From Bdellovibrionales bacterium (lineage in GTDB: Bacteria > Bdellovibrionota > Bdellovibrionia > Bdellovibrionales > UBA1609), in contig OZ241877.1 of assembly GCA_965203095.1 (NCBI GenBank), positions 1,184,001-1,248,000 on the forward strand: 64,000 nucleotides of DNA, read 5' to 3'. Under the pieces are notes generated by a model. It saw only the letters and a list, made by a program, of their open reading frames with translations. It did not search any database and was not told the origin of the DNA. The translations under genes were made by a program, and so were the position numbers. Below are positions 36,842-49,401 of this stretch, piece after piece. The number at the start of each line of letters is the position of its first letter. The stretch's first letter is position 1.

Positions 36842-37786
36842 TTAGGTTTCTGTTTTTTCTCCCAGCAGATCTTCCATCATGTCATTGAAGTCGTCGGTAG
36901 GGCATTCTTGTGTTTTTTCTTTATTTGCTGGCAGAAGGGCCAACAGTTCAGGCAGAGGGTTAAAGCAAGTAGCCAAATCCCCAGGCATCAAACCGTCTTT
37001 GTTTTTAGAGTGAATGTCAGCTCCTTTGTCCACTAAAACTTTCACTATTTCTATATCATTGAACCATGCGGCTAAGTGTAAGGGGGTATCGCCGTCTTTA
37101 TCTGTAGCCGAAATGTTGGCTCCAGCAGATAAAAGAATTTTCACAAAATCGGAGTTAGAGTTAAAAAATGTGGCTAAATGTAGAGGGGTCATGCCATTAT
37201 CATCTTTGATCTCAATATTGGCTCCGGCAGATAAAAGAATTTTCATAAAATCAGGATCAGGGTTCATCCTGGTGGCTAAATGCAAAGGGGTTCGTCCGTC
37301 ATCATTTTTGACATTAACTTTTGCTTTAAAAGATAGCAGGGTCCCTCCAATTTTTAAAGAAAATTTGATGACAGCCAAATGTAATGCGGTATCGCCATCT
37401 TCATCTTTAACCGAAATGTCGGCTCCTGAGTCCAACAGGGTGAGAATTACATCAAAAATTTCATTACGTAAAATAGCTATGTGCAGGGGAGTATTGCCAT
37501 TTTCATCTTTGGCCTCAATATCAGCCCCTTCTGCTATAAGTGCTGAAATCACTTTGGGGTCGGGGTTTGCTGTGGCGGCTAAATGCAAAGGGGTTTGTCC
37601 GTCATTATTTTTGGCCTTCACATCAGCTCCTTCATTTAATAAATATTTTATGAGTTGCAGTTCGCCAAAATCAGCCATTAAATGTAAAGGGGTATTGCCA
37701 TTTTCATCTCTAAAGTTGATATCTGTATTGGATCCTGCTGAGAGATGACAAAAAAATAAGAATATAAAACCGGATAAAAACTGCAT
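36842..37786 (-). CDS. Secreted ankyrin-repeat protein
   Basis: About seven G.TPLHLA repeats; likely start MQFLSG with signal peptide. Confidence 0.92.
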   Translation of the reverse strand: MQFLSGFIFLFFCHLSAGSNTDINFRDENGNTPLHLMADFGELQLIKYLLNEGADVKAKNNDGQTPLHLAATANPDPKVISALIAEGADIEAKDENGNTPLHIAILRNEIFDVILTLLDSGADISVKDEDGDTALHLAVIKFSLKIGGTLLSFKAKVNVKNDDGRTPLHLATRMNPDPDFMKILLSAGANIEIKDDNGMTPLHLATFFNSNSDFVKILLSAGANISATDKDGDTPLHLAAWFNDIEIVKVLVDKGADIHSKNKDGLMPGDLATCFNPLPELLALLPANKEKTQECPTDDFNDMMEDLLGEKTET

Positions 37787-37872
37787 AATAACTCTATAAT
37801 ACAAAAAAGCGGATATTGCAAATTTAAATTGGAAAAGTGAAAAAATTTCCGATTTAAAGCAAGACTCCCTTA

Positions 37873-38538
37873 TCAACAGGCCAGGGGATGATGAAGAGGG
37901 ATATTCGTCATTTCTGAAATTTTTTGGCTATAATAGCTTGTTTTTTTAGGAAAAGACAGGTTTTTAACAATGCTGAGAGATCGCAAAAAAGCAAACAGAT
38001 GAAAATCATCTAAGCTCAGGTCCCCATTAAAAAAATCCTGGGAGCTATCAAAAAAAGACTCCAAAATCTGTAGTTCTTTACTCATTTCCTGAATAAGTTC
38101 AGGACTTTTGCTGAGGCAGTCTTTAAAAGGCCCGATATAAGCCTCTTTCTTTTTTTGAAAGTAATTTCTTGCCTGAAGGCTTTTAAATTCTTCTAAAGGG
38201 GCTTGGACCCATCGTGGCATGGCTAGCTCATAGCAAAGTGTGCTGTTTTTGTTCATCCATTTTGAAAGCTTGTTGTTTGTTTTTTCAGAAAGCAAAGGAT
38301 GGCCATCTTCTTGATCTATATGGGATATTATATCTAAACTCTCTGGCATAAATTGGCCATCTTCCAGCTGTAATATAGGAACCATTTTGACCCCTATCAT
38401 GGATTGAGGGGTTTTTTCATCATCGTTAGGGAGGCATACCAACTCCAACCCCACTTTTTTAAAGCCAAAAATCATACGGGCCTTCACACAGTAAGGGCAA
38501 TGATCATAAATATAAAGCTTTTTTGTGGTTTGAGCCAT
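37873..38538 (-). CDS. grxB: Glutaredoxin 2
   Basis: KLYIYDHCPYCVKARMIFG.K, NDDE.TP..MIG.KMVPIL, MPESLDII. Confidence 0.93.
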   Translation of the reverse strand: MAQTTKKLYIYDHCPYCVKARMIFGFKKVGLELVCLPNDDEKTPQSMIGVKMVPILQLEDGQFMPESLDIISHIDQEDGHPLLSEKTNNKLSKWMNKNSTLCYELAMPRWVQAPLEEFKSLQARNYFQKKKEAYIGPFKDCLSKSPELIQEMSKELQILESFFDSSQDFFNGDLSLDDFHLFAFLRSLSIVKNLSFPKKTSYYSQKISEMTNIPLHHPLAC

Positions 38539-39025: not shown

Positions 39026-41689
39026 ATGAAGAAAAATATATTAAAAAATACCTTGAGAGAGTCTGTTAAAATGGGAATCCAGAAAACTTTATCTTCTTTA
39101 CCTACAAAACCAACGGGAATCTTGCCCCCAGGGATCTCCGAGTCGCAGTTTCAAGGCAATTTCACCCCCCCCCCCCCCCCCGAAAAACGCTGTAAATTCA
39201 ATAGTTTAAAGCATTTTAAACACAAAAAAGCTTTTCTTTTAAATAATAAAGGCTTTTCTATTACCGGTGTGGTGGTGGCCTCCACGATTGGGGTAATAGC
39301 CATGACGGGTATGGCTAAACACATGGCCTTGATAGCCCAACAGCAACAGAAAATAAATAAGGAAAGGGAACTGAATGCTTTTTGGGAACAGTTTGGGACT
39401 GAAACTAATTGTAAGGAAACAATAAAAGGCTGGCTCAATCAGAATACCCCTCCCGCAAATTCTAAAAAAGAAAAGTTAGCTTTGGGGACTGAAGGCAATG
39501 AGATAGAAATCAAAGTTTTAAAAAAGAAAAAAAACAATGTTGTCAGCAATTTTTTTGATGTAAGCACTGCAAATAATGTTTTTAGGCGACATGGTTTTAC
39601 TCCCCGCTTTTTTGTTTTGAGATGTAATCCTGCTGACAATGGCGGGAGTTGTGATTGCAAGGCCAGCGGGACGACTTATCCCTGCAAAAAGACTTGGATG
39701 CTTATCCCTGGGGTTCAAAGGGGGATGACTTTTATTAGAGGAAGGGTTTTGAATTTAGATATTGAGTGGTCGTCTGCTCCTAATAGCACTTATACTAATT
39801 TTGATTGCACTAAGATAGGAATATCCGGCGGGAAAAACCGCTGTTATAAGGCGGAGGCTACTGGGAGCAAAAGAACCCTTGCTGGTTGTGGTAGCACACA
39901 ATCACTTGGTGGCACAGGCACAACCGCTTTTGGTAATGATGTAGCAAGGTCGGCTACTATCACTGGGGCTGAAAATTATTTTTTTGGACACTGGGCGGGG
40001 CATAGTGCCAAAGTAAGCTCCACTGGCAATTCTTTTTTTGGGGATAGAGCGGGCTTAGGAGTAGAGATAAAAGCCAGAGGGACAAACAATGGGAATGCCA
40101 ATGTTTTTGTGGGGCAGAGAGCGGGGGACAATGCCACAATAGATGGTGGCACACAAAACCATTTTTTTGGATTTCAATCGGGATATGATGCCACAGTGAG
40201 AGGGCATAGAAATCACTTTTTAGGTCCTTATTCTGGGTATAAAGTAAATATGACGTCGGGGAATAATAATACTTTTGTCGGCTCTAATGCTGGTAGAGAA
40301 ACCACAATCTCAGCCGGTGGTAATCATTTTTTTGGGGACAATGCTGGGAAAAAAGCCACAGTGAGCGGAGGGCAGAACCATTTTATTGGCGATCATGCCG
40401 GCCAATCCGCCACAGTGGCCGGGGCGAGAAATACCTTCTTAGGGAACAGTGCGGGCTGGAATGCGGATGTAAGAAGCGGGGCCGATGGCAATGTCTTTAT
40501 TGGGCAGAGTGCGGGAAAAAAAGATCATGGGACTACCACAGGCGGTTATATATCAGGGGATTTGAATGTCTTTTTAGGGCATGCCGCCGGCCGGACTGCT
40601 AAGGTGTCCGGGCATTATAATACCTTCATTGGAGCCGGTGCCGGGGACGGGCAACCTATCTCTGGCAATGGCGGGACTTATATCAAAGGGAGTAAAATAG
40701 AAATCAAAGCCAATGATGTTGTAATCAAATCGGGGGCGGGCGGTGTTAAGTGTGCTTGGAATGAATATCTTAGAGGATTTGATGGCAATGGAAAACTTTG
40801 CGGAGTGCGGGCCACTATAGGAACTTGTCCCAGTGGGCAAGTGCTTAGTGGATTTAATGCCGATGGAACTTTAAATTGTGTGGCCACTGGAGGCACAGGC
40901 TGGAAACAAACTTGTCCGGTGGGGGATGTTCTCAGAGGGTTTAACTCTGCCGGGAATAAAGTCTGTGCCCTTCAAGATAAATGCAATGCAGGTTATTATT
41001 GGAGTGGGAGTCGCTGTATAACCCGCTGTGGTAGCAGTCAGCGATGGAATCATGAAAGGGCGACATGTGTTGCTTATACCCCTCCCCCCTCCCCCCAGCA
41101 GGGGTGTAGTCCCGGCTGTTCCGCGGATTCTATTTGTAGGAGCGGAACTTGTGTCCCCCTCTCCCCCGGAGGACATGGTTCCTCCAAAGTTTATAAAAAG
41201 AATATTCGTCCTTTTAATGATATGGAAAAGGCTTTGAAGGATATTTTAGAGACTCCCCTATTCACTTATTATTTTAAGGATAAAAACAATTTTCCTAAAA
41301 AGAAAAGAATGGGAGTGATAGCGGAGGACTTGCCAAAAAACTTACAGCTTAAAGGAAAGCCTATTGCTCCGGACTGGCCCTCTATCTATGGGACATTGTG
41401 GGCCGGGATAAAAGCCCTTCATTCCAAGATAGAAAGTTTTAAAAAAGATGTGCTCTCAAAATTCAAAACTCTCAATTCCACAATAGAGGCAAAATTTAAA
41501 GCCCTCAGCAAAACAGACGATCAGTTTAAAAAAGAGCTGGCAGGAACAAATAAAGAGTTGGCCAATACTAAACAGGAACTAAAATCAGCCAATGAAAAAA
41601 TAGACAGCCTCTCAAAAGAATTAAAAGAACTAAAGTCCAGCTTTGAGAAAAAAGGACTAAACAAAATAGACAATCAGCCGATAAGATAA
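39026..41689 (+). CDS. Fibre/adhesin-like protein: prepilin-like N-terminus, Gly-rich N-x-F-x-G repeats, Cys repeats, peptidase S74 chaperone, coiled coil
   Basis: NNKG|FSITGVVVASTIGVIAM; more than ten NxFxGxxAG repeats; three C..G.VL.GF...G...C repeats; SSKVYKKNI...MGVIAEDLP...LWAGIKAL. Confidence 0.8.
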   Translation: MKKNILKNTLRESVKMGIQKTLSSLPTKPTGILPPGISESQFQGNFTPPPPPEKRCKFNSLKHFKHKKAFLLNNKGFSITGVVVASTIGVIAMTGMAKHMALIAQQQQKINKERELNAFWEQFGTETNCKETIKGWLNQNTPPANSKKEKLALGTEGNEIEIKVLKKKKNNVVSNFFDVSTANNVFRRHGFTPRFFVLRCNPADNGGSCDCKASGTTYPCKKTWMLIPGVQRGMTFIRGRVLNLDIEWSSAPNSTYTNFDCTKIGISGGKNRCYKAEATGSKRTLAGCGSTQSLGGTGTTAFGNDVARSATITGAENYFFGHWAGHSAKVSSTGNSFFGDRAGLGVEIKARGTNNGNANVFVGQRAGDNATIDGGTQNHFFGFQSGYDATVRGHRNHFLGPYSGYKVNMTSGNNNTFVGSNAGRETTISAGGNHFFGDNAGKKATVSGGQNHFIGDHAGQSATVAGARNTFLGNSAGWNADVRSGADGNVFIGQSAGKKDHGTTTGGYISGDLNVFLGHAAGRTAKVSGHYNTFIGAGAGDGQPISGNGGTYIKGSKIEIKANDVVIKSGAGGVKCAWNEYLRGFDGNGKLCGVRATIGTCPSGQVLSGFNADGTLNCVATGGTGWKQTCPVGDVLRGFNSAGNKVCALQDKCNAGYYWSGSRCITRCGSSQRWNHERATCVAYTPPPSPQQGCSPGCSADSICRSGTCVPLSPGGHGSSKVYKKNIRPFNDMEKALKDILETPLFTYYFKDKNNFPKKKRMGVIAEDLPKNLQLKGKPIAPDWPSIYGTLWAGIKALHSKIESFKKDVLSKFKTLNSTIEAKFKALSKTDDQFKKELAGTNKELANTKQELKSANEKIDSLSKELKELKSSFEKKGLNKIDNQPIR
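39165..39181 (+). repeat. Homopolymeric C17 tract in the 5' coding region (candidate phase-variation switch)
   Basis: 17 consecutive C encoding TPPPPP in an AT-rich genome. Confidence 0.85.
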
Positions 41690-41714
41690 ACAGGAAACCT
41701 AAAACGGAGGGACT

Positions 41715-42269
41715 ATGAAACAAATTATTTTAATCCTTTTATGGATTGCAATCCCAGCTCAGAGCATTGCAATCCCCTTTGATAAAAAAAATTTAAAATA
41801 TAAAAAATCTTTAAAAAAAAGTGATCTCCACTATAAGAAATTAAGAGGTTCACTTCATGATAAGAAACAAACAAAAAAACCAGTTGATCCAACAAAACAA
41901 GCAGAGCTTATTAAGCAAATAAGGAAAGGCAAAAAAGATTTGGCGGGAGCAGACTTGAGAGGGGCAAACTTAGTGAGAACGAACTTACAGAATACAACCT
42001 TGAATTGGGCGGACTTTGAGGGGGCGATCTTAATAAGGGCGAACTTGAGAAGAGCATACATGGAACATGCAAACTTGAGAGGGGCAAAACTGCATGGGGC
42101 GGACTTTGAGGGGGCGATCTTGACAGGGGCGGACTTTAAGGGGGCGATCTTGACAGGGGCAAAATTTAAAGGAACAAACCTAATTTTTGCTTATATAGAC
42201 TCAAAATATCGTGACATGATTATGGCCAGCGGAGCATTGAACACAGACAGGATTAACTGGTGGGATTAA
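41715..42269 (+). CDS. Secreted pentapeptide-repeat protein (copy 1)
   Basis: Signal peptide; A(D/N)(L/F)xx repeats; GGAGG RBS. Confidence 0.9.
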   Translation: MKQIILILLWIAIPAQSIAIPFDKKNLKYKKSLKKSDLHYKKLRGSLHDKKQTKKPVDPTKQAELIKQIRKGKKDLAGADLRGANLVRTNLQNTTLNWADFEGAILIRANLRRAYMEHANLRGAKLHGADFEGAILTGADFKGAILTGAKFKGTNLIFAYIDSKYRDMIMASGALNTDRINWWD

Positions 42270-42350
42270 GCTCCGCCCTTTGTGTGAAAAATTTACAAAA
42301 GGCTTTAAAAGACTTTGTTTTCCCGGACAATCCTGCTATAAACAAACTCT

Positions 42351-42608
42351 ATGAAAATACTATTGAGCCTTATTCTTTTAATGAGCTTGCCGGCTTTTTC
42401 TGAAAACACGGAGCCAGTTGATCACACAAAACAAGCAGAATTGATTAACCAAATCAGACAAGGAAAAAAAAACTTGACAGGGGCGGACTTGAGAGGGGCT
42501 ACTTGGATAGGAGCGAACTTAGCTGGAACTTATATAAACTCAAAATATCGTGACATGATTATGGCCAGCGGAGCATTGAACACAGACAAGATTAAATGGG
42601 TGGATTAA
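42351..42608 (+). CDS. Short pentapeptide-repeat paralogue (copy 1)
   Basis: Signal peptide; shares PVD.TKQAELI.QIR.GKK and YI.SKYRDMIMASGALNTD with the upstream gene. Confidence 0.75.
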   Translation: MKILLSLILLMSLPAFSENTEPVDHTKQAELINQIRQGKKNLTGADLRGATWIGANLAGTYINSKYRDMIMASGALNTDKIKWVD

Positions 42609-42676
42609 GCTTTTGCCCTTTGTGTGAAAAATTTACAAAATTCTATTTTTTTGGAGGATTATTATATAAGGCAAAT

Positions 42677-42838
42677 ATGAAAAATTTATTATTTATCTTT
42701 TCCTTTTATTCTTTTACCGCTGGAGCAGGTTTTTGGGACTCTTTGAATTTTTGGTCCGGTCCTGATTGGTATGCAGTGATTACAAACTTACATTTTGGAC
42801 AACCTTTTAAAATATATGCTGATAATGTAGGGAATTGA
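42677..42838 (+). CDS. Small putative secreted protein or gene fragment (copy 1)
   Basis: MKNLLFIFSFYSFTAGA signal-like start; 53 aa. Confidence 0.3.
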   Translation: MKNLLFIFSFYSFTAGAGFWDSLNFWSGPDWYAVITNLHFGQPFKIYADNVGN

Positions 42839-43032
42839 CTTTCATTATACTTGTGGTATAATAAACTCGCTATTTTACTGATAAAATTAGTCTAAAATCT
42901 GAGCTTTTAGGCAAAGAGAATAAATTCTGTCAGCAAAATACTGAAACATGGACAACCCCTTCCTTTTTTCCTATATTGAGTAGACAGTGAGTGTGCAGGC
43001 TTTTATAAAATATAGGGGTAGTAAAAAACCGG

Positions 43033-43689
43033 ATGAATGCCAAAAAAACAGTTTTAATAGTCGCAGGGCCTTCTGGGGGACATATTTACCCCGCTTTGGC
43101 TGTGGCGGAAAAGTTGAAAGATCAATTTCAAGTTCATTTGGCCCATTCCGGTTCTCTTTTAGGAAGAAGTCTTTTAAATTCTACAAAATTCCCCATCCAT
43201 GAAATTTCCATTGGTGGTTTAGCCCAAGGGCAGAGTTTTTTTAAAAAAATAAAAACAGTTTTTAACCTGCCACTGGCTTTTATTCATTCCCTAAGACTTA
43301 TCCAAAAAATAAAAACTGGTCTTGTTTTTGGAACTGGAGGATCTGTCACCGGTCCCCTTTTATTAACTGCTGTTTTAATGTTTCGTAAAACTGCTTTATG
43401 GGAAGGGAATATTTCTGCAGGATTGGCCAACCGCTGGCTAGCTCCCTTTGTCTCAAAAGTGTTTACAGTTTTTCCTGAAGTGGAGGCTTTGCCTTTAAAA
43501 AAACAACAACTCTGTGGTTATCCTTTAAGGGATCCAAAACCGGGTTTTCAAAAAAAACCACCAACTGAGGGGCAAAAGGATTTTTCCCGACTTCCGCATT
43601 TTGTGATCAGGAATCCAGTATTATCAAGGGTTTGCGGGGAGGCTTGGGTCACTACATTCAAGACTTTAGTTTGTGATATTAGGACATAA
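43033..43689 (+). pseudogene. murG: 3'-truncated murG copy reading into the IS end
   Basis: Identical to 48316.. up to ...EGQKDF (43585), then IS-derived SRLPHF... Confidence 0.92.
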
Positions 43690-45361
43690 ATTTAATAGTT
43701 CGTGGGAAGGTTTTGTTAAAGGCTTTGTAGATATTCTTTTGTGTTTTGTTGATTGTAGAAGGTAGGAAGAATTTCTTTCCTGTGGATGTGTCCTCTATAT
43801 AACTGATTTGGACAAGACTTAATTCTTGTTTAATGACTTCAAAACTAAGGTTTATATTTTTAGATTTCAAAACATGCCTCACAAAAACCGTCAGACCATA
43901 AGCTATAAAACATATTAACACATGAGCCTTTATCCTTCTCGGTGTCCAATGATAGATAGGTCTCATCTTCAAATCATGTTTGTTCATACGAAAAGCAGAT
44001 TCTATTTGCCAAAGATTTTTGTATTTTTCCAATATGTTATGGGCCGTCTCTTTTTTGTTGTTTACAGCTACAGCACTAAATCCGTCCCATAAACGCTCCG
44101 CTTGTATCTTGTCTTCATTTAAAACAGCCCAACCCTTCTGTTTTAACTCCAAATACTTCTTAAGTCCGGTGTTTTTAACCAAATCCTTCACACGAACTCG
44201 ACCACCTTTCATCTTTTCTTTTATCTTGGCCAAAAGCTTCTCCCTATCCCTTCTGTCTTTATCTGCTCTTTCCCGATCATAACGGACAATGAGACGAAAA
44301 CCCTCCCACTCATATTCCCCCGTCCAGCTCCGAACCTTTCTAAAATCCCCTCTTTTAGAAAAAGCAGGAGCTTCCGACAACACCCTATCCTTCAAAGACT
44401 TCTTCATTGACTTCAGCCGGGCCCCAGCTATAAACTGAACCTTCCTTTTATCCATCTCAAAAAGATTTTTCTTGGAAAACATCCCACGATCAGCAACTAA
44501 AAACACATCCCGAATATCATAACTCTTTGATATATTATCTATCGTCTGGAGCAAAGTATTGCCCTCAAAAGTATTACCAGAAAAAAGCTCATAACCTATA
44601 GGCAAACCCCCTTTAGTCGTCATCAAAGACAAAACAACCTGTGTCTCTTTGATCTTATTGTCCTTGCTAAAACCACAACTCCTCAAATTATCCTCGATAA
44701 AACTCTCAAAATACAATGTCGTCACATCAAAAAACACAACATCAATACGCTCTTTAAACAAACTCAATGTCCTCTCGGTTAGCTTGCCTTTTAAAACCTC
44801 ACTATTCTTATAAACCTTGTCCATCATCCGATAAACACGATCCAAAGGTATGGACTGAACACCAGCAGACCTTCTGCTTATGTCCAAAACACTACCCCGC
44901 TTACTCATCGGACTTTTTAAACGATGCAAAACCATTTCCTTCAATAGTTGGCTGGCCTCTCTATGCTTATATCCCTCATTAAAACAAGACGATAAACCCA
45001 GGTCATCGTAAACCTTGCCAAATATGTCTGAAATCCCCACAACTTGACGACTCTCCTCTTTCAGACTTGGTGCATGAACCATATCCCCAGGATAAAAATC
45101 CCTCTTCTTCTCTCTCGTAGAGTCCCCCTTGGAATCCCTCTTAGAATCCTCCTCAAAAAGCGAGAACTGATCTTTTCCTTTGAGGTCCTGAATGACTTTT
45201 CTGCCGATCTTGTAAAATAAAGCAATTTTCTCTTTATCGTTTTGATGGCAATGTCCTACACAGCCAATAGTCTCTTGTCTGACTTTTTTGCCTTCTCTAC
45301 GGCTTCTGACCACACGGATGGAAACATGGCCATTGGCTTTTTTAACTTCACGAATAAACAT
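43679..45361 (-). CDS. IS1634-family DDE transposase
   Basis: MFIREVKK, FFDVTTLYFES, GFSKD, GNTFEG, VADRGM, LWQIESAFR..KHDLKMRPIYHW..RIKAHVLICFIAY. Confidence 0.95.
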   Translation of the reverse strand: MFIREVKKANGHVSIRVVRSRREGKKVRQETIGCVGHCHQNDKEKIALFYKIGRKVIQDLKGKDQFSLFEEDSKRDSKGDSTREKKRDFYPGDMVHAPSLKEESRQVVGISDIFGKVYDDLGLSSCFNEGYKHREASQLLKEMVLHRLKSPMSKRGSVLDISRRSAGVQSIPLDRVYRMMDKVYKNSEVLKGKLTERTLSLFKERIDVVFFDVTTLYFESFIEDNLRSCGFSKDNKIKETQVVLSLMTTKGGLPIGYELFSGNTFEGNTLLQTIDNISKSYDIRDVFLVADRGMFSKKNLFEMDKRKVQFIAGARLKSMKKSLKDRVLSEAPAFSKRGDFRKVRSWTGEYEWEGFRLIVRYDRERADKDRRDREKLLAKIKEKMKGGRVRVKDLVKNTGLKKYLELKQKGWAVLNEDKIQAERLWDGFSAVAVNNKKETAHNILEKYKNLWQIESAFRMNKHDLKMRPIYHWTPRRIKAHVLICFIAYGLTVFVRHVLKSKNINLSFEVIKQELSLVQISYIEDTSTGKKFFLPSTINKTQKNIYKAFNKTFPRTIKFMS

Positions 45362-45367
45362 ACTGGC

Positions 45368-45396
45368 AGAATAAGAGAAGACAGAAGGCTTGTCAA
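45368..45396 (-). promoter_or_regulatory. Sigma70-type transposase promoter, probably leaderless
   Basis: Minus strand TTGACA-17 bp-TATTCT, then 6 nt to the ATG at 45361; no Shine-Dalgarno. Confidence 0.65.
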
Positions 45397-45504
45397 GTAG
45401 ATAAATTAAAAATATTGCTTTATTTTTATCAAGGGCCACTACACCCCAACACAACAATAAAAAGCCCATAAACTGGGCCTTTTAAACCCTTACAACTCTA
45501 CAAA

Positions 45505-46972
45505 ATGCGGAAGTCGGGAGTAAATATGACGTCGGGGAATAATAATACTTTTGTCGGCTCTAATGCTGGTAGAGAAACCACAATCTCAGCCGGTGGTAAT
45601 CATTTTTTTGGGGACAATGCTGGGAAAAAAGCCACAGTGAGCGGAGGGCAGAACCATTTTATTGGCGATCATGCCGGCCAATCCGCCACAGTGGCCGGGG
45701 CGAGAAATACCTTCTTAGGGAACAGTGCGGGCTGGAATGCGGATGTAAGAAGCGGGGCCGATGGCAATGTCTTTATTGGGCAGAGTGCGGGAAAAAAAGA
45801 TCATGGGACTACCACAGGCGGTTATATATCAGGGGATTTGAATGTCTTTTTAGGGCATGCCGCCGGCCGGACTGCTAAGGTGTCCGGGCATTATAATACC
45901 TTCATTGGAGCCGGTGCCGGGGACGGGCAACCTATCTCTGGCAATGGCGGGACTTATATCAAAGGGAGTAAAATAGAAATCAAAGCCAATGATGTTGTAA
46001 TCAAATCGGGGGCGGGCGGTGTTAAGTGTGCTTGGAATGAATATCTTAGAGGATTTGATGGCAATGGAAAACTTTGCGGAGTGCGGGCCACTATAGGAAC
46101 TTGTCCCAGTGGGCAAGTGCTTAGTGGATTTAATGCCGATGGAACTTTAAATTGTGTGGCCACTGGAGGCACAGGCTGGAAACAAACTTGTCCGGTGGGG
46201 GATGTTCTCAGAGGGTTTAACTCTGCCGGGAATAAAGTCTGTGCCCTTCAAGATAAATGCAATGCAGGTTATTATTGGAGTGGGAGTCGCTGTATAACCC
46301 GCTGTGGTAGCAGTCAGCGATGGAATCATGAAAGGGCGACATGTGTTGCTTATACCCCTCCCCCCTCCCCCCTCCCCCCAGCAGGGGTGTAGTCCCGGCT
46401 GTTCCGCGGATTCTATTTGTAGGAGCGGAACTTGTGTCCCCCTCTCCCCCGGAGGACATGGTTCCTCCAAAGTTTATAAAAAGAATATTCGTCCTTTTAA
46501 TGATATGGAAAAGGCTTTGAAGGATATTTTAGAGACTCCCCTATTCACTTATTATTTTAAGGATAAAAACAATTTTCCTAAAAAGAAAAGAATGGGAGTG
46601 ATAGCGGAGGACTTGCCAAAAAACTTACAGCTTAAAGGAAAGCCTATTGCTCCGGACTGGCCCTCTATCTATGGGACATTGTGGGCCGGGATAAAAGCCC
46701 TTCATTCCAAGATAGAAAGTTTTAAAAAAGATGTGCTCTCAAAATTCAAAACTCTCAATTCCACAATAGAGGCAAAATTTAAAGCCCTCAGCAAAACAGA
46801 CGATCAGTTTAAAAAAGAGCTGGCAGGAACAAATAAAGAGTTGGCCAATACTAAACAGGAACTAAAATCAGCCAATGAAAAAATAGACAGCCTCTCAAAA
46901 GAATTAAAAGAACTAAAGTCCAGCTTTGAGAAAAAAGGACTAAACAAAATAGACAATCAGCCGATAAGATAA
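45505..46972 (+). pseudogene. 5'-truncated, frameshifted second copy of the fibre gene
   Basis: Starts at the IS end; an extra TCCCCCC unit at about 46373-46379 splits it into ORFs 45505-46392 and 46304-46972. Confidence 0.88.
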
Positions 46973-46997
46973 ACAGGAAACCTAAAACGGAGGGACT

Positions 46998-47552
46998 ATG
47001 AAACAAATTATTTTAATCCTTTTATGGATTGCAATCCCAGCTCAGAGCATTGCAATCCCCTTTGATAAAAAAAATTTAAAATATAAAAAATCTTTAAAAA
47101 AAAGTGATCTCCACTATAAGAAATTAAGAGGTTCACTTCATGATAAGAAACAAACAAAAAAACCAGTTGATCCAACAAAACAAGCAGAGCTTATTAAGCA
47201 AATAAGGAAAGGCAAAAAAGATTTGGCGGGAGCAGACTTGAGAGGGGCAAACTTAGTGAGAACGAACTTACAGAATACAACCTTGAATTGGGCGGACTTT
47301 GAGGGGGCGATCTTAATAAGGGCGAACTTGAGAAGAGCATACATGGAACATGCAAACTTGAGAGGGGCAAAACTGCATGGGGCGGACTTTGAGGGGGCGA
47401 TCTTGACAGGGGCGGACTTTAAGGGGGCGATCTTGACAGGGGCAAAATTTAAAGGAACAAACCTAATTTTTGCTTATATAGACTCAAAATATCGTGACAT
47501 GATTATGGCCAGCGGAGCATTGAACACAGACAGGATTAACTGGTGGGATTAA
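46998..47552 (+). CDS. Secreted pentapeptide-repeat protein (copy 2)
   Basis: Identical translation to 41715-42269. Confidence 0.9.
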   Translation: MKQIILILLWIAIPAQSIAIPFDKKNLKYKKSLKKSDLHYKKLRGSLHDKKQTKKPVDPTKQAELIKQIRKGKKDLAGADLRGANLVRTNLQNTTLNWADFEGAILIRANLRRAYMEHANLRGAKLHGADFEGAILTGADFKGAILTGAKFKGTNLIFAYIDSKYRDMIMASGALNTDRINWWD

Positions 47553-47633
47553 GCTCCGCCCTTTGTGTGAAAAATTTACAAAAGGCTTTAAAAGACTTTG
47601 TTTTCCCGGACAATCCTGCTATAAACAAACTCT

Positions 47634-47891
47634 ATGAAAATACTATTGAGCCTTATTCTTTTAATGAGCTTGCCGGCTTTTTCTGAAAACACGGAGCCAG
47701 TTGATCACACAAAACAAGCAGAATTGATTAACCAAATCAGACAAGGAAAAAAAAACTTGACAGGGGCGGACTTGAGAGGGGCTACTTGGATAGGAGCGAA
47801 CTTAGCTGGAACTTATATAAACTCAAAATATCGTGACATGATTATGGCCAGCGGAGCATTGAACACAGACAAGATTAAATGGGTGGATTAA
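47634..47891 (+). CDS. Short pentapeptide-repeat paralogue (copy 2)
   Basis: Identical translation to 42351-42608. Confidence 0.75.
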   Translation: MKILLSLILLMSLPAFSENTEPVDHTKQAELINQIRQGKKNLTGADLRGATWIGANLAGTYINSKYRDMIMASGALNTDKIKWVD

Positions 47892-48315
47892 GCTTTTGCC
47901 CTTTGTGTGAAAAATTTACAAAATTCTATTTTTTTGGAGGATTATTATATAAGGCAAATATGAAAAATTTATTATTTATCTTTTCCTTTTATTCTTTTAC
48001 CGCTGGAGCAGGTTTTTGGGACTCTTTGAATTTTTGGTCCGGTCCTGATTGGTATGCAGTGATTACAAACTTACATTTTGGACAACCTTTTAAAATATAT
48101 GCTGATAATGTAGGGAATTGACTTTCATTATACTTGTGGTATAATAAACTCGCTATTTTACTGATAAAATTAGTCTAAAATCTGAGCTTTTAGGCAAAGA
48201 GAATAAATTCTGTCAGCAAAATACTGAAACATGGACAACCCCTTCCTTTTTTCCTATATTGAGTAGACAGTGAGTGTGCAGGCTTTTATAAAATATAGGG
48301 GTAGTAAAAAACCGG

Positions 48316-49401
48316 ATGAATGCCAAAAAAACAGTTTTAATAGTCGCAGGGCCTTCTGGGGGACATATTTACCCCGCTTTGGCTGTGGCGGAAAAGTTGA
48401 AAGATCAATTTCAAGTTCATTTGGCCCATTCCGGTTCTCTTTTAGGAAGAAGTCTTTTAAATTCTACAAAATTCCCCATCCATGAAATTTCCATTGGTGG
48501 TTTAGCCCAAGGGCAGAGTTTTTTTAAAAAAATAAAAACAGTTTTTAACCTGCCACTGGCTTTTATTCATTCCCTAAGACTTATCCAAAAAATAAAAACT
48601 GGTCTTGTTTTTGGAACTGGAGGATCTGTCACCGGTCCCCTTTTATTAACTGCTGTTTTAATGTTTCGTAAAACTGCTTTATGGGAAGGGAATATTTCTG
48701 CAGGATTGGCCAACCGCTGGCTAGCTCCCTTTGTCTCAAAAGTGTTTACAGTTTTTCCTGAAGTGGAGGCTTTGCCTTTAAAAAAACAACAACTCTGTGG
48801 TTATCCTTTAAGGGATCCAAAACCGGGTTTTCAAAAAAAACCACCAACTGAGGGGCAAAAGGATTTTTTTAAGCTTTTGATCTTGGGGGGGAGCCAAGGT
48901 TCTCAGTTCATCAATCAGGTTGTCAGCCAAGCTGTGGAGGAGGAGAGCTGGAGAGAGGGTATTTTTATCTATCATCAAACAGGCAAAATGTCTTTCCCTA
49001 AAATCAACAAGAAATACAAGAGTTTGAATAGGGTTCAGGCTTTTCCCTTCAGCTCAAATATAGATAAGTATTACAAAAACAGCGATCTGATTATTTCTCG
49101 TGCCGGCTCAGGTGCTATTTGGGAGGTGGCGGAACAAGGCAAAGCCCTTGTCCTCATCCCTTTAACTGCCTCTGCCGGAGGGCATCAGCTCAAAAATGCC
49201 CTTTGGCTCTCTTCAAGAAATTGTGTTGAAATGATCAAAGAGCCGGATTTTAATGTCAAGAGCTTGAAGGATATAGTCATTCAGCTGAAACAAAATGAGA
49301 AGAGAAGAAAGCAGTTGGCTCAATTTTTAAAAACCAGGAGCCAAGGAGACGGTGCTCAGTATATTGCTAATCAGTTGGCCGGACTGGCCTCTACTGCTTG
49401 A
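48316..49401 (+). CDS. murG: Undecaprenyl-PP-MurNAc-pentapeptide GlcNAc transferase
   Basis: GPSGGHIYPALA, GTGG, GYPLR, LGGSQG, ISRAGSG, HQLKNA. Confidence 0.95.
   Translation: MNAKKTVLIVAGPSGGHIYPALAVAEKLKDQFQVHLAHSGSLLGRSLLNSTKFPIHEISIGGLAQGQSFFKKIKTVFNLPLAFIHSLRLIQKIKTGLVFGTGGSVTGPLLLTAVLMFRKTALWEGNISAGLANRWLAPFVSKVFTVFPEVEALPLKKQQLCGYPLRDPKPGFQKKPPTEGQKDFFKLLILGGSQGSQFINQVVSQAVEEESWREGIFIYHQTGKMSFPKINKKYKSLNRVQAFPFSSNIDKYYKNSDLIISRAGSGAIWEVAEQGKALVLIPLTASAGGHQLKNALWLSSRNCVEMIKEPDFNVKSLKDIVIQLKQNEKRRKQLAQFLKTRSQGDGAQYIANQLAGLASTA

Follow-up and report, generated by a model that had tools for sequence, protein, structure and literature searches.

We describe a gene of a Bdellovibrionales bacterium (assembly GCA_965203095.1) that lies in a 64,000-nucleotide stretch of contig OZ241877.1 (positions 1,184,001 to 1,248,000, hereafter the window) and encodes a fibre protein in which a type IV pilin-like N-terminus is joined, through a repetitive shaft and a variable cysteine-rich segment, to a C-terminal S74 chaperone. 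The source genome holds five full-length genes of this kind, i.e. the window copy and four paralogues, each with a run of C residues upstream of its pilin-like segment; the domain order, the paralogue set and the positions, lengths and frames of these tracts are given here as assembled. The reading that we favour, and consider reasonably probable, is that the genes form a phase-variable set of trimeric pilus-tip adhesins, in which a pilin-like protein would be cut at Gly76|Phe77, trimerised by its S74 domain, displayed at the tip of a type IV filament and switched by its C17 run. The architecture of pilin plus S74 is already in print and is not new. What is probably new is a multi-copy, variable-tip and probably phase-variable pilin-S74 set, in a genus without detectable anchors of the Bdellovibrio MAT fibres and without detectable flagellin.

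The N-terminus carries the first part of the argument. A preliminary description of the gene, made from its letters alone, had placed a basic leader before a G|F site at 39253/39254 with Gly at +5, and this is borne out: the 76-residue leader contains 15 K/R and 3 D/E, position +5 is Gly81 where type IV pilins often, though not always, carry Glu, and the most hydrophobic 19-residue window starts at residue 79 (Kyte-Doolittle 1.86). Two marks of a class III signal are present, i.e. a hydrophilic leader ending in Gly and a stretch of 20-25 hydrophobic residues modelled as a long alpha1 helix; in this class the leader is of variable length with Gly or Ala as its last residue, and Glu5 is common without being obligatory (PMC10191384). 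In a model of the mature N-terminal 235 residues (pLDDT 77.6), a 48-residue first helix (residues 3-50) is followed by an alpha/beta head, and a 68-row profile of the N-terminal domain gave ten matches against the PDB, all of them type IV pilins, with a best E of 4e-5 and mostly over the alpha1 helix. In an alignment of 60 family members, Gly stands at -1 in 53 and Phe at +1 in 43, while +5 is G in 34, E in 12 and S in 10. A genome survey for pilin-S74 proteins, as suggested in the preliminary description, recovered eight S74 open reading frames (ORFs) in five of nine sister genomes (labelled G001-G009, with G000 the source genome and L numbers denoting loci), all eight with a prepilin-like G|F or G|S start. 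It also recovered 36 further ORFs, drawn from family-search loci in seven genomes after removal of five loci already counted and three edge-cut fragments; all 36 have a prepilin-like site by regular expression, with Glu at +5 in 23, Ser in 11, and Gly and Ala in one each. A search of cluster representatives found both motifs, again by regular expression, in 53 of the best 150 of 426, 44 of them with Gly5, and this set overlaps with the seeds. Short pilin-S74 proteins were found also in two other families of the order, and one relative exceeds both curated Pfam cut-offs (21.2 bits for N_methyl, where it scores 23.3, and 22 bits for Peptidase_S74, PF13884). The fibre protein searched as a single sequence returned its paralogues and two weak matches only, and the ESM Atlas provided, as leads only, values of 0.76-0.78 between the N-terminus and N_methyl clusters of Bdellovibrionota. 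At the level of the family, and as judged by these sequence patterns, the N-terminus behaves as a pilin signal.

Several points weigh against this part of our reading. N_methyl scores 15.6 bits in the fibre protein and 18.3 bits in three paralogues, both below the cut-off, and reached E<=0.001 in only one of 12 family members. The prepilin-like N-terminus put forward in the preliminary description is thus upheld by the family profile and by relatives with Glu5, but not by the protein's own N_methyl score, and of the two profile searches proposed there only that with Peptidase_S74 exceeded its cut-off. Leaders of 76-119 residues far exceed those of the ordinary pilins of the source genome, a search with the head fold ranked pilins third and fourth with weak matches (7o5y, Z 3.1, rmsd 4.6, 108 aligned residues; 3sok, Z 3.0, rmsd 6.5, 107 aligned residues), and Foldseek with the N-terminal model returned nothing at E<=0.001. 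The sub-threshold score, the lack of Glu5 and the very long leader would also be in keeping with an ordinary uncleaved signal anchor whose likeness to pilins is superficial. We regard this as very improbable, as it is opposed by the conservation of Gly at -1 and Phe at +1, by homologues with a canonical GFSLxE and by the restriction of the PDB profile matches to pilins.

The second part of the argument concerns the C-terminus, where Pfam recognises Peptidase_S74 at residues 719-771 (31.3 bits, covering 51 of 58 model positions) and where the same family was matched in 12 of 12 members. Ser719 and Lys724 are spaced five residues apart, as in the S74 consensus SDxxxK (PMC10769870), and the dyad is kept across the 60-member alignment (S in 55, K in 56). 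The family profile matches the chaperone chain of a phage long tail fibre (E 1.5e-7). A Foldseek search with the full-length model had no match at E<=0.001, and the MyRF ICA domain came out on top (prob 1.00, E 0.05). The preliminary description had recognised the S74-like spacing of Ser and Lys and a C-terminal coiled coil; the S74 identity is supported by the score and the MyRF match, and the coiled coil by a long helix in the model. For MyRF, the Ser/Lys pair has been found essential, and cleavage depends on the trimer (PMC8326128). A sister-genome protein at locus L032 (G002:C1 ~1749800-1752000) bears on the trimeric state, as it combines the pilin segment and repeats with a collagen triple helix and S74, 14 Gly-X-Y triplets standing directly before the S74 domain (Pfam Collagen, E 3e-12). 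Collagen is obligately three-stranded, and the placing of the triplets argues that S74 nucleates three chains. The arrangement at L032 resembles that of the procollagen C-propeptide.

Against our reading, the S74 domain sits after a variable Cys/Pro segment, not after a triple beta-helix, and the surroundings of its active site are unusual. The Asp of SDxxxK is replaced by Ser in 46 of the 60 members, as at residue 720 of the fibre protein, and kept in nine, the usual Arg two residues before Lys is likewise retained in nine only, and the Pfam match is weak. These features would fit an S74 variant that no longer cleaves itself and is retained as a trimerisation knob, with the coiled coil as the distal end of the fibre. 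We hold such a loss of cleavage to be improbable, because Ser and Lys are nearly invariant and the members in G008 retain SDxRxK within the same architecture. It is also opposed by the pattern of divergence among the paralogues. Compared with the window copy, they are 84-98% identical in alpha1, 71-80% in the head, 61-73% in the shaft and 90-98% in S74 itself, but 7-32% in the segment preceding S74, as expected if that segment becomes exposed after cleavage.

The region between these two ends agrees with the preliminary description, which had noted many NxFxGxxAG repeats and three disulphide-like repeats; we count 12 of the former at residues 317-540 and find the latter at 576-647, two by regular expression and the third by eye. 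In the single-chain model of the full-length protein (pLDDT 74.8, mostly 75-98 in the repeat region), the shaft compares best with HMW1 (VIA Z 17.0, rmsd 2.9, 239 aligned), and tailspikes, UspA1 and other adhesin beta-helices also match. Such matches, obtained with a predicted model, indicate a common fold and not an oligomeric state, and the closest fits are to monomeric beta-helices (HMW1, Vag8, EtpA), which counts against our reading. Leads from the ESM Atlas link the repeats to unnamed clusters (0.96) and to a cluster with 22% YadA_head (0.94).

The third part of the argument is the C tract, which the preliminary description had missed, together with the four further paralogues and the partial duplicate associated with an insertion sequence (IS). 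In all five genes a C run lies 72-73 nt ahead of the Phe codon, with lengths of C17 in the window copy and C18, C14, C18 and C22 in the others. The window C17 copy and the C14 copy are in frame with the family ATG, whereas one C18 copy and the C22 copy (copies A and D) are out of frame yet otherwise intact over 820-850 codons; among the copies with a common flank, C14 keeps the frame and C18 and C22 break it. The other C18 copy (copy C) has no start block and carries a frameshift by an extra T, confirmed in contigs of two runs. No ATG, GTG or TTG lies in frame between the C17 run and the cleavage site of the window copy. Gene callers start the two out-of-frame copies at an internal Met (entries of 815 and 843 residues), so that both the pilin signal and the putative switch are hidden. 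The chromosome holds nine C/G runs of at least 11, against 0.04 expected by composition, and five of them precede fibre genes; none of the 15 other N_methyl matches has a run longer than 7 within 400 nt upstream. A 15-nt marker of the family start block occurs seven times in the source genome. Two of the features by which contingency loci are recognised are present, i.e. an extended simple repeat early in the coding sequence with no start downstream of it, and paralogue tract lengths both in and out of frame, and from these the C runs likely switch the fibre genes on and off. The pilC and opa tracts of Neisseria lie in signal-peptide codons. Poly-G in pilC1/pilC2 and (CTTCT)n in opa are established cases of translational phase variation (PMC5320596), and the fibre genes share with them a simple repeat early in the reading frame, a surface adhesin (here predicted) as product and membership of multi-copy families; PilC, however, is not a pilin, Opa is an outer-membrane barrel, and switching is proven there whereas it is inferred here.

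Similar tracts occur in sister genomes beside other kinds of tip. In G007, runs of C9-C26 lie in the leader of all seven pilin genes with Cys-rich tips that were fetched, four in frame and three out. From G009, 19 regions picked by profile match gave 28 pilin genes with hexapeptide-like solenoids, and 25 of these carry a tract, mostly (TC)n of 18-102 nt and otherwise C/G runs of 13-20; nine of the tract genes are in frame (one through a distant ATG only), eleven are out of frame, four have a later ATG and one has no ATG. Two of the four S74 genes in G008 have tracts, one in frame and one out. The evidence on the other side is that the single S74 genes of G001, G002, G005 and G007 (4/4) are without a long tract, and that a C run of at least 9 occurs in only one of the 36 further, more distant ORFs. 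Moreover, the five source-genome tracts share one cassette and are therefore not independent, and the contigs of four runs (X1, X2, X4 and X5 of seven) gave no tract-length variant, although contigs cannot resolve such tracts.

Homopolymer lengths are error-prone in long-read assemblies. It could thus be argued that the C runs reflect decay or assembly noise, the out-of-frame copies being pseudogenes of a shrinking genome or homopolymer errors and no switching taking place. The lack of length variants, the missing start block and real second frameshift of copy C, and the presence of remnants and of an IS-associated duplicate would suit this explanation. We give it a low probability. Errors alter lengths but do not put C14-22 at the same position of five genes, no other damage is seen in copies A and D, and the (TC)n tracts of G009 show the same mixture of in-frame and out-of-frame copies behind one shared ATG. 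On the evidence of MutS, found in five of five genomes examined, a loss of mismatch repair was rejected as the reason for slippage; the search did not extend to MutL.

Further long C runs lie at G000:C1:1414917, G000:C1:1606315 and L139 (G002), i.e. upstream of a Tad-like pilin gene that has the fibre-gene cassette, at the 5' end of a gene for a secreted protein and inside a lipoprotein signal peptide. At loci L109-L127 of G009, the pilin genes with solenoid tips of the hexapeptide/YdcK-like type number at least 28, and most have (TC)n or C/G tracts in or before the leader. Another genome has at least 10 pilin-S74 genes in a cluster of ~70 kb (L053, L055, L056, L060, L061), with up to 36 shaft repeats and with repetitive leaders of 70-250 residues without C runs. 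Tandem triads of pilin-S74 genes, with three distinct subtypes in fixed order, occur at four loci of one genome and once in another (L062, L071, L073, L074, L070); such triads possibly represent heterotrimeric tips.

The source genome (1.80 Mb, two contigs, 38% GC, 90% complete) encodes machinery to which such fibres could be fitted. A prepilin peptidase with methylase domain (PilD-type) is present, as are four secretins and seven T2SSE-type ATPases, two of them PilT, so that extension and retraction types are both represented, and ten pilin-type genes score above the N_methyl cut-off. The fibre genes themselves are scattered among housekeeping genes and not placed in a pilus operon, which speaks against our reading and leaves them unlinked to any machine. 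The genome also encodes a set resembling a type II secretion system (T2SS), with a GspG-like pilin and a second secretin/ATPase pair, besides further secretin/ATPase pairs, and a bulky Glu5-less GspK has been proposed to stall at the secretin (PMC5207764). From these observations one may suppose that the class III signal is processed but that the trimer is a T2SS pseudopilus cap, a secreted cargo or an inner-membrane-anchored protein, and not part of a long retractile pilus. We think this unlikely. A hypervariable distal tip and ON/OFF tracts mark surface-exposed proteins, Glu5 is kept in many relatives, and PilT is present and flagellin was found in none of the 10 genus genomes (85-94% complete), a combination that speaks for contact through pili. 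PilY1 (PF05567) was above its cut-off in none of 41 genomes, in a search that lacked a positive control and is hence uninformative.

The joining of a prepilin N-terminus to S74 has been catalogued both directly and with IPR008640, which we take to be the YadA head, in between. In the InterPro survey of Raynaud et al. (2021), 29 proteins have the architecture IPR012902-IPR030392 and eight more carry IPR008640 between the two (37 in total), placing them among the 15 commonest modular pilins (PMC8179133). The fibre protein has the same prepilin N-terminus and C-terminal S74, but scores below the N_methyl cut-off, and paralogue sets, variable tips and tracts are not described in that survey (PMC8179133). 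Its authors interpret S74 as a peptidase activity and studied none of the 37; the rows concerned in Dataset S1 name no organisms, and the word 'Bdellovibrio' is absent from the supplements searched (PMC8179133). A literature search limited to titles and listings, with most subscription journals outside its coverage, found no paper combining pilin, S74 or intramolecular chaperone, and Bdellovibrionota, and none on phase variation in Bdellovibrio among the titles listed.

A further likeness is to the MAT fibres of B. bacteriovorus, of which 13 of 21 have an S74 C-terminus and all 21 a signal peptide followed by a beta-rich domain of ~130 residues (Caulton et al. 2024, PMC10769870). The two systems share the same order, multiple copies, a constant anchor or base, variable tips and a C-terminal S74 with the Ser/Lys dyad (PMC10769870), but the anchor here is a pilin module in place of the signal peptide and beta-rich domain. 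Caulton and colleagues name no surface anchor for the MATs and point to type IV pili, and the word 'pilin' is absent from the main text (PMC10769870). Membership of the MAT family was considered and rejected, as the MAT N-terminal model NF053851 (Bdello_MAT_N) had no match in the fibre protein or the source genome, nor in any of the 10 genomes of the genus, while it was positive in 15 of 31 other relatives. The model was also missing from the remaining 16 of these 31, so its absence is not special to the genus.

A tip position has precedents among large minor pilins. The type IVb pilins CofB and TcpB are tip homotrimers (PMC8179133), and the first subunit of a filament needs no Glu5, as in tip pilins of the GspK type (PMC5207764). 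The fibre protein would share with them the size and the place at the filament tip. In contrast to the five scattered genes with Gly5 described here, CofB and TcpB keep Glu5, are encoded by a single gene in a pilus operon and have no self-cleaving chaperone, and GspK is one subunit of a hetero-complex.

We propose the following series of steps for the pilus-tip adhesins. The protein would be inserted by Sec with its long basic leader staying in the cytoplasm, and PilD would remove the leader at Gly76|Phe77; since the leader is discarded, it could tolerate repeats and a slippery tract. In the periplasm, three S74 domains would zip through the coiled coil, register the shafts and cleave themselves at Ser719, leaving chains of ~640 residues that end distally in the variable Cys-rich segment. 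The three pre-bundled pilin helices may then enter a type IV filament as its first subunits, as argued for TcpB and GspK, because pilin helices without Glu5 would fit only at the tip. Slipped-strand gain or loss of C would set which tips a cell displays, and such switching may diversify the binding targets, with the prey surface most likely and host matrix next, or hide tips from phages; the prey surface is our first guess because of the analogy with MATs. A bolder version, which we offer tentatively and regard as doubtful, is that in a genome-reduced genus with neither flagella nor MAT anchors S74 pre-assembles Glu5-less pilin homotrimers that prime type IVa pili, so that each pilus would be tipped by one of a number of randomly switched fibres and prey selection would be phase-variable. 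Each sister species would equip the shared pilin base in its own way, be it with S74 fibres, collagen, hexapeptide-like solenoids or Cys-rich tips, to a total of ~28 per genome at most.

The features of the window are collected in the table below. Arrays of pentapeptide-repeat genes trail every fibre paralogue and the remnants in the source genome (G000:C1 475302-479212, 976839-978577, 184853-188831 and 962780-968122) and were not seen beside the eight S74 genes of the sister genomes. Downstream of the fibre gene, the duplicate departs from its original at a single point, an additional 7-nt unit in the Pro linker that puts the 5'-less copy out of frame; the duplicate could still be a misassembly, because the contigs of four runs bridged no IS junction. 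A truncated murG (43033-43689) results from the duplication around the IS (window 40243-48868). A secreted ankyrin-repeat protein is encoded at 36842-37876, two genes ahead of the fibre gene.

Features of the fibre gene and its surroundings (positions in the window)
Feature	Position	Strand	Basis or remark
Family start block: conserved cassette upstream of the gene, with the ATG as its last codon	38961..39028	+	5'-end alignment; common to 4/5 paralogues and two remnants
Pilin-S74 fibre gene (P0001), 887 aa	39026..41689	+	ORF and translation
Basic leader of 76 aa with Gly76 as last residue; predicted to be a class III signal leader and a prepilin peptidase substrate	39026..39253	+	Sequence
C17 homopolymer in leader codons, in frame; predicted slipped-strand ON/OFF switch	39165..39181	+	Sequence
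Pilin alpha1 helix, F77 to ~126: alpha1N hydrophobic (Gly at +5), alpha1C amphipathic	39254..39403	+	Model; profile
Cys-containing alpha/beta head, residues 127-290, closed by conserved C..CY..TLxGCG junction	39404..39895	+	Model, alignment
Twelve NxFxGxxAG repeats, residues 317-540; predicted parallel beta-solenoid shaft	39974..40645	+	Regular expression, model; usual spacing 18 aa
Three C-x2-G/N-x2-L-x-GF-x3-G-x3-C units, residues 576-647; likely disulphide hairpins	40751..40966	+	Two by strict regular expression, third by eye
Hypervariable Cys/Pro-rich tip, residues 651-718; predicted distal end after S74 cleavage	40976..41179	+	7-32% identity to four paralogues
C-rich heptamer tract in Pro linker	41079..41096	+	Duplicate copy has one extra 7-nt unit, frameshifted
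Peptidase S74 intramolecular chaperone; S719 and K724 kept, Ser replaces Asp720	41180..41440	+	Pfam, profile, model
C-terminal coiled coil of chaperone	41375..41650	+	Long helix predicted at ~784-875 in model
Two small secreted pentapeptide-repeat genes	41715..42608	+	Directly downstream of fibre gene
IS with 20-bp terminal inverted repeats; DDE transposase 43679-45469	43585..45519	-	4 copies in genome
Duplicate (3350 nt) of 40243-43585: 5'-less frameshifted fibre copy, pentapeptide genes and murG 5' end	45519..48868	+	IS between copies

A search of the genome collection with the family alignment gave 25 loci, all of them in metagenome-assembled genomes of Bdellovibrionales. A REP-like palindrome, ATTCCC-N7/8-GGGAAT, which we liken to dRS3 of Neisseria, occurs at 77 sites on the source chromosome (G000:C1), where it adds to long leaders, and as eight tandem 28-nt units at 1608865-1609061. 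The source genome has small shares in two sponge-metagenome runs, and sponges are a reported source of reduced, non-motile Bdellovibrionota (PMC9944714).

The lineage described here fuses its fibre directly to a pilin, which bears on how recognition fibres are mounted on Bdellovibrio-like predators and provides a testable link between S74 fibres and pili. A catalogued architecture that has been taken to join a pilin to a peptidase may thereby be re-read as a trimeric tip built by a chaperone. The tracts point to a pathogen-like switching repertoire in an organism that is probably a predator or a symbiont, and selection by phages could favour such switching whether the target is prey or host.

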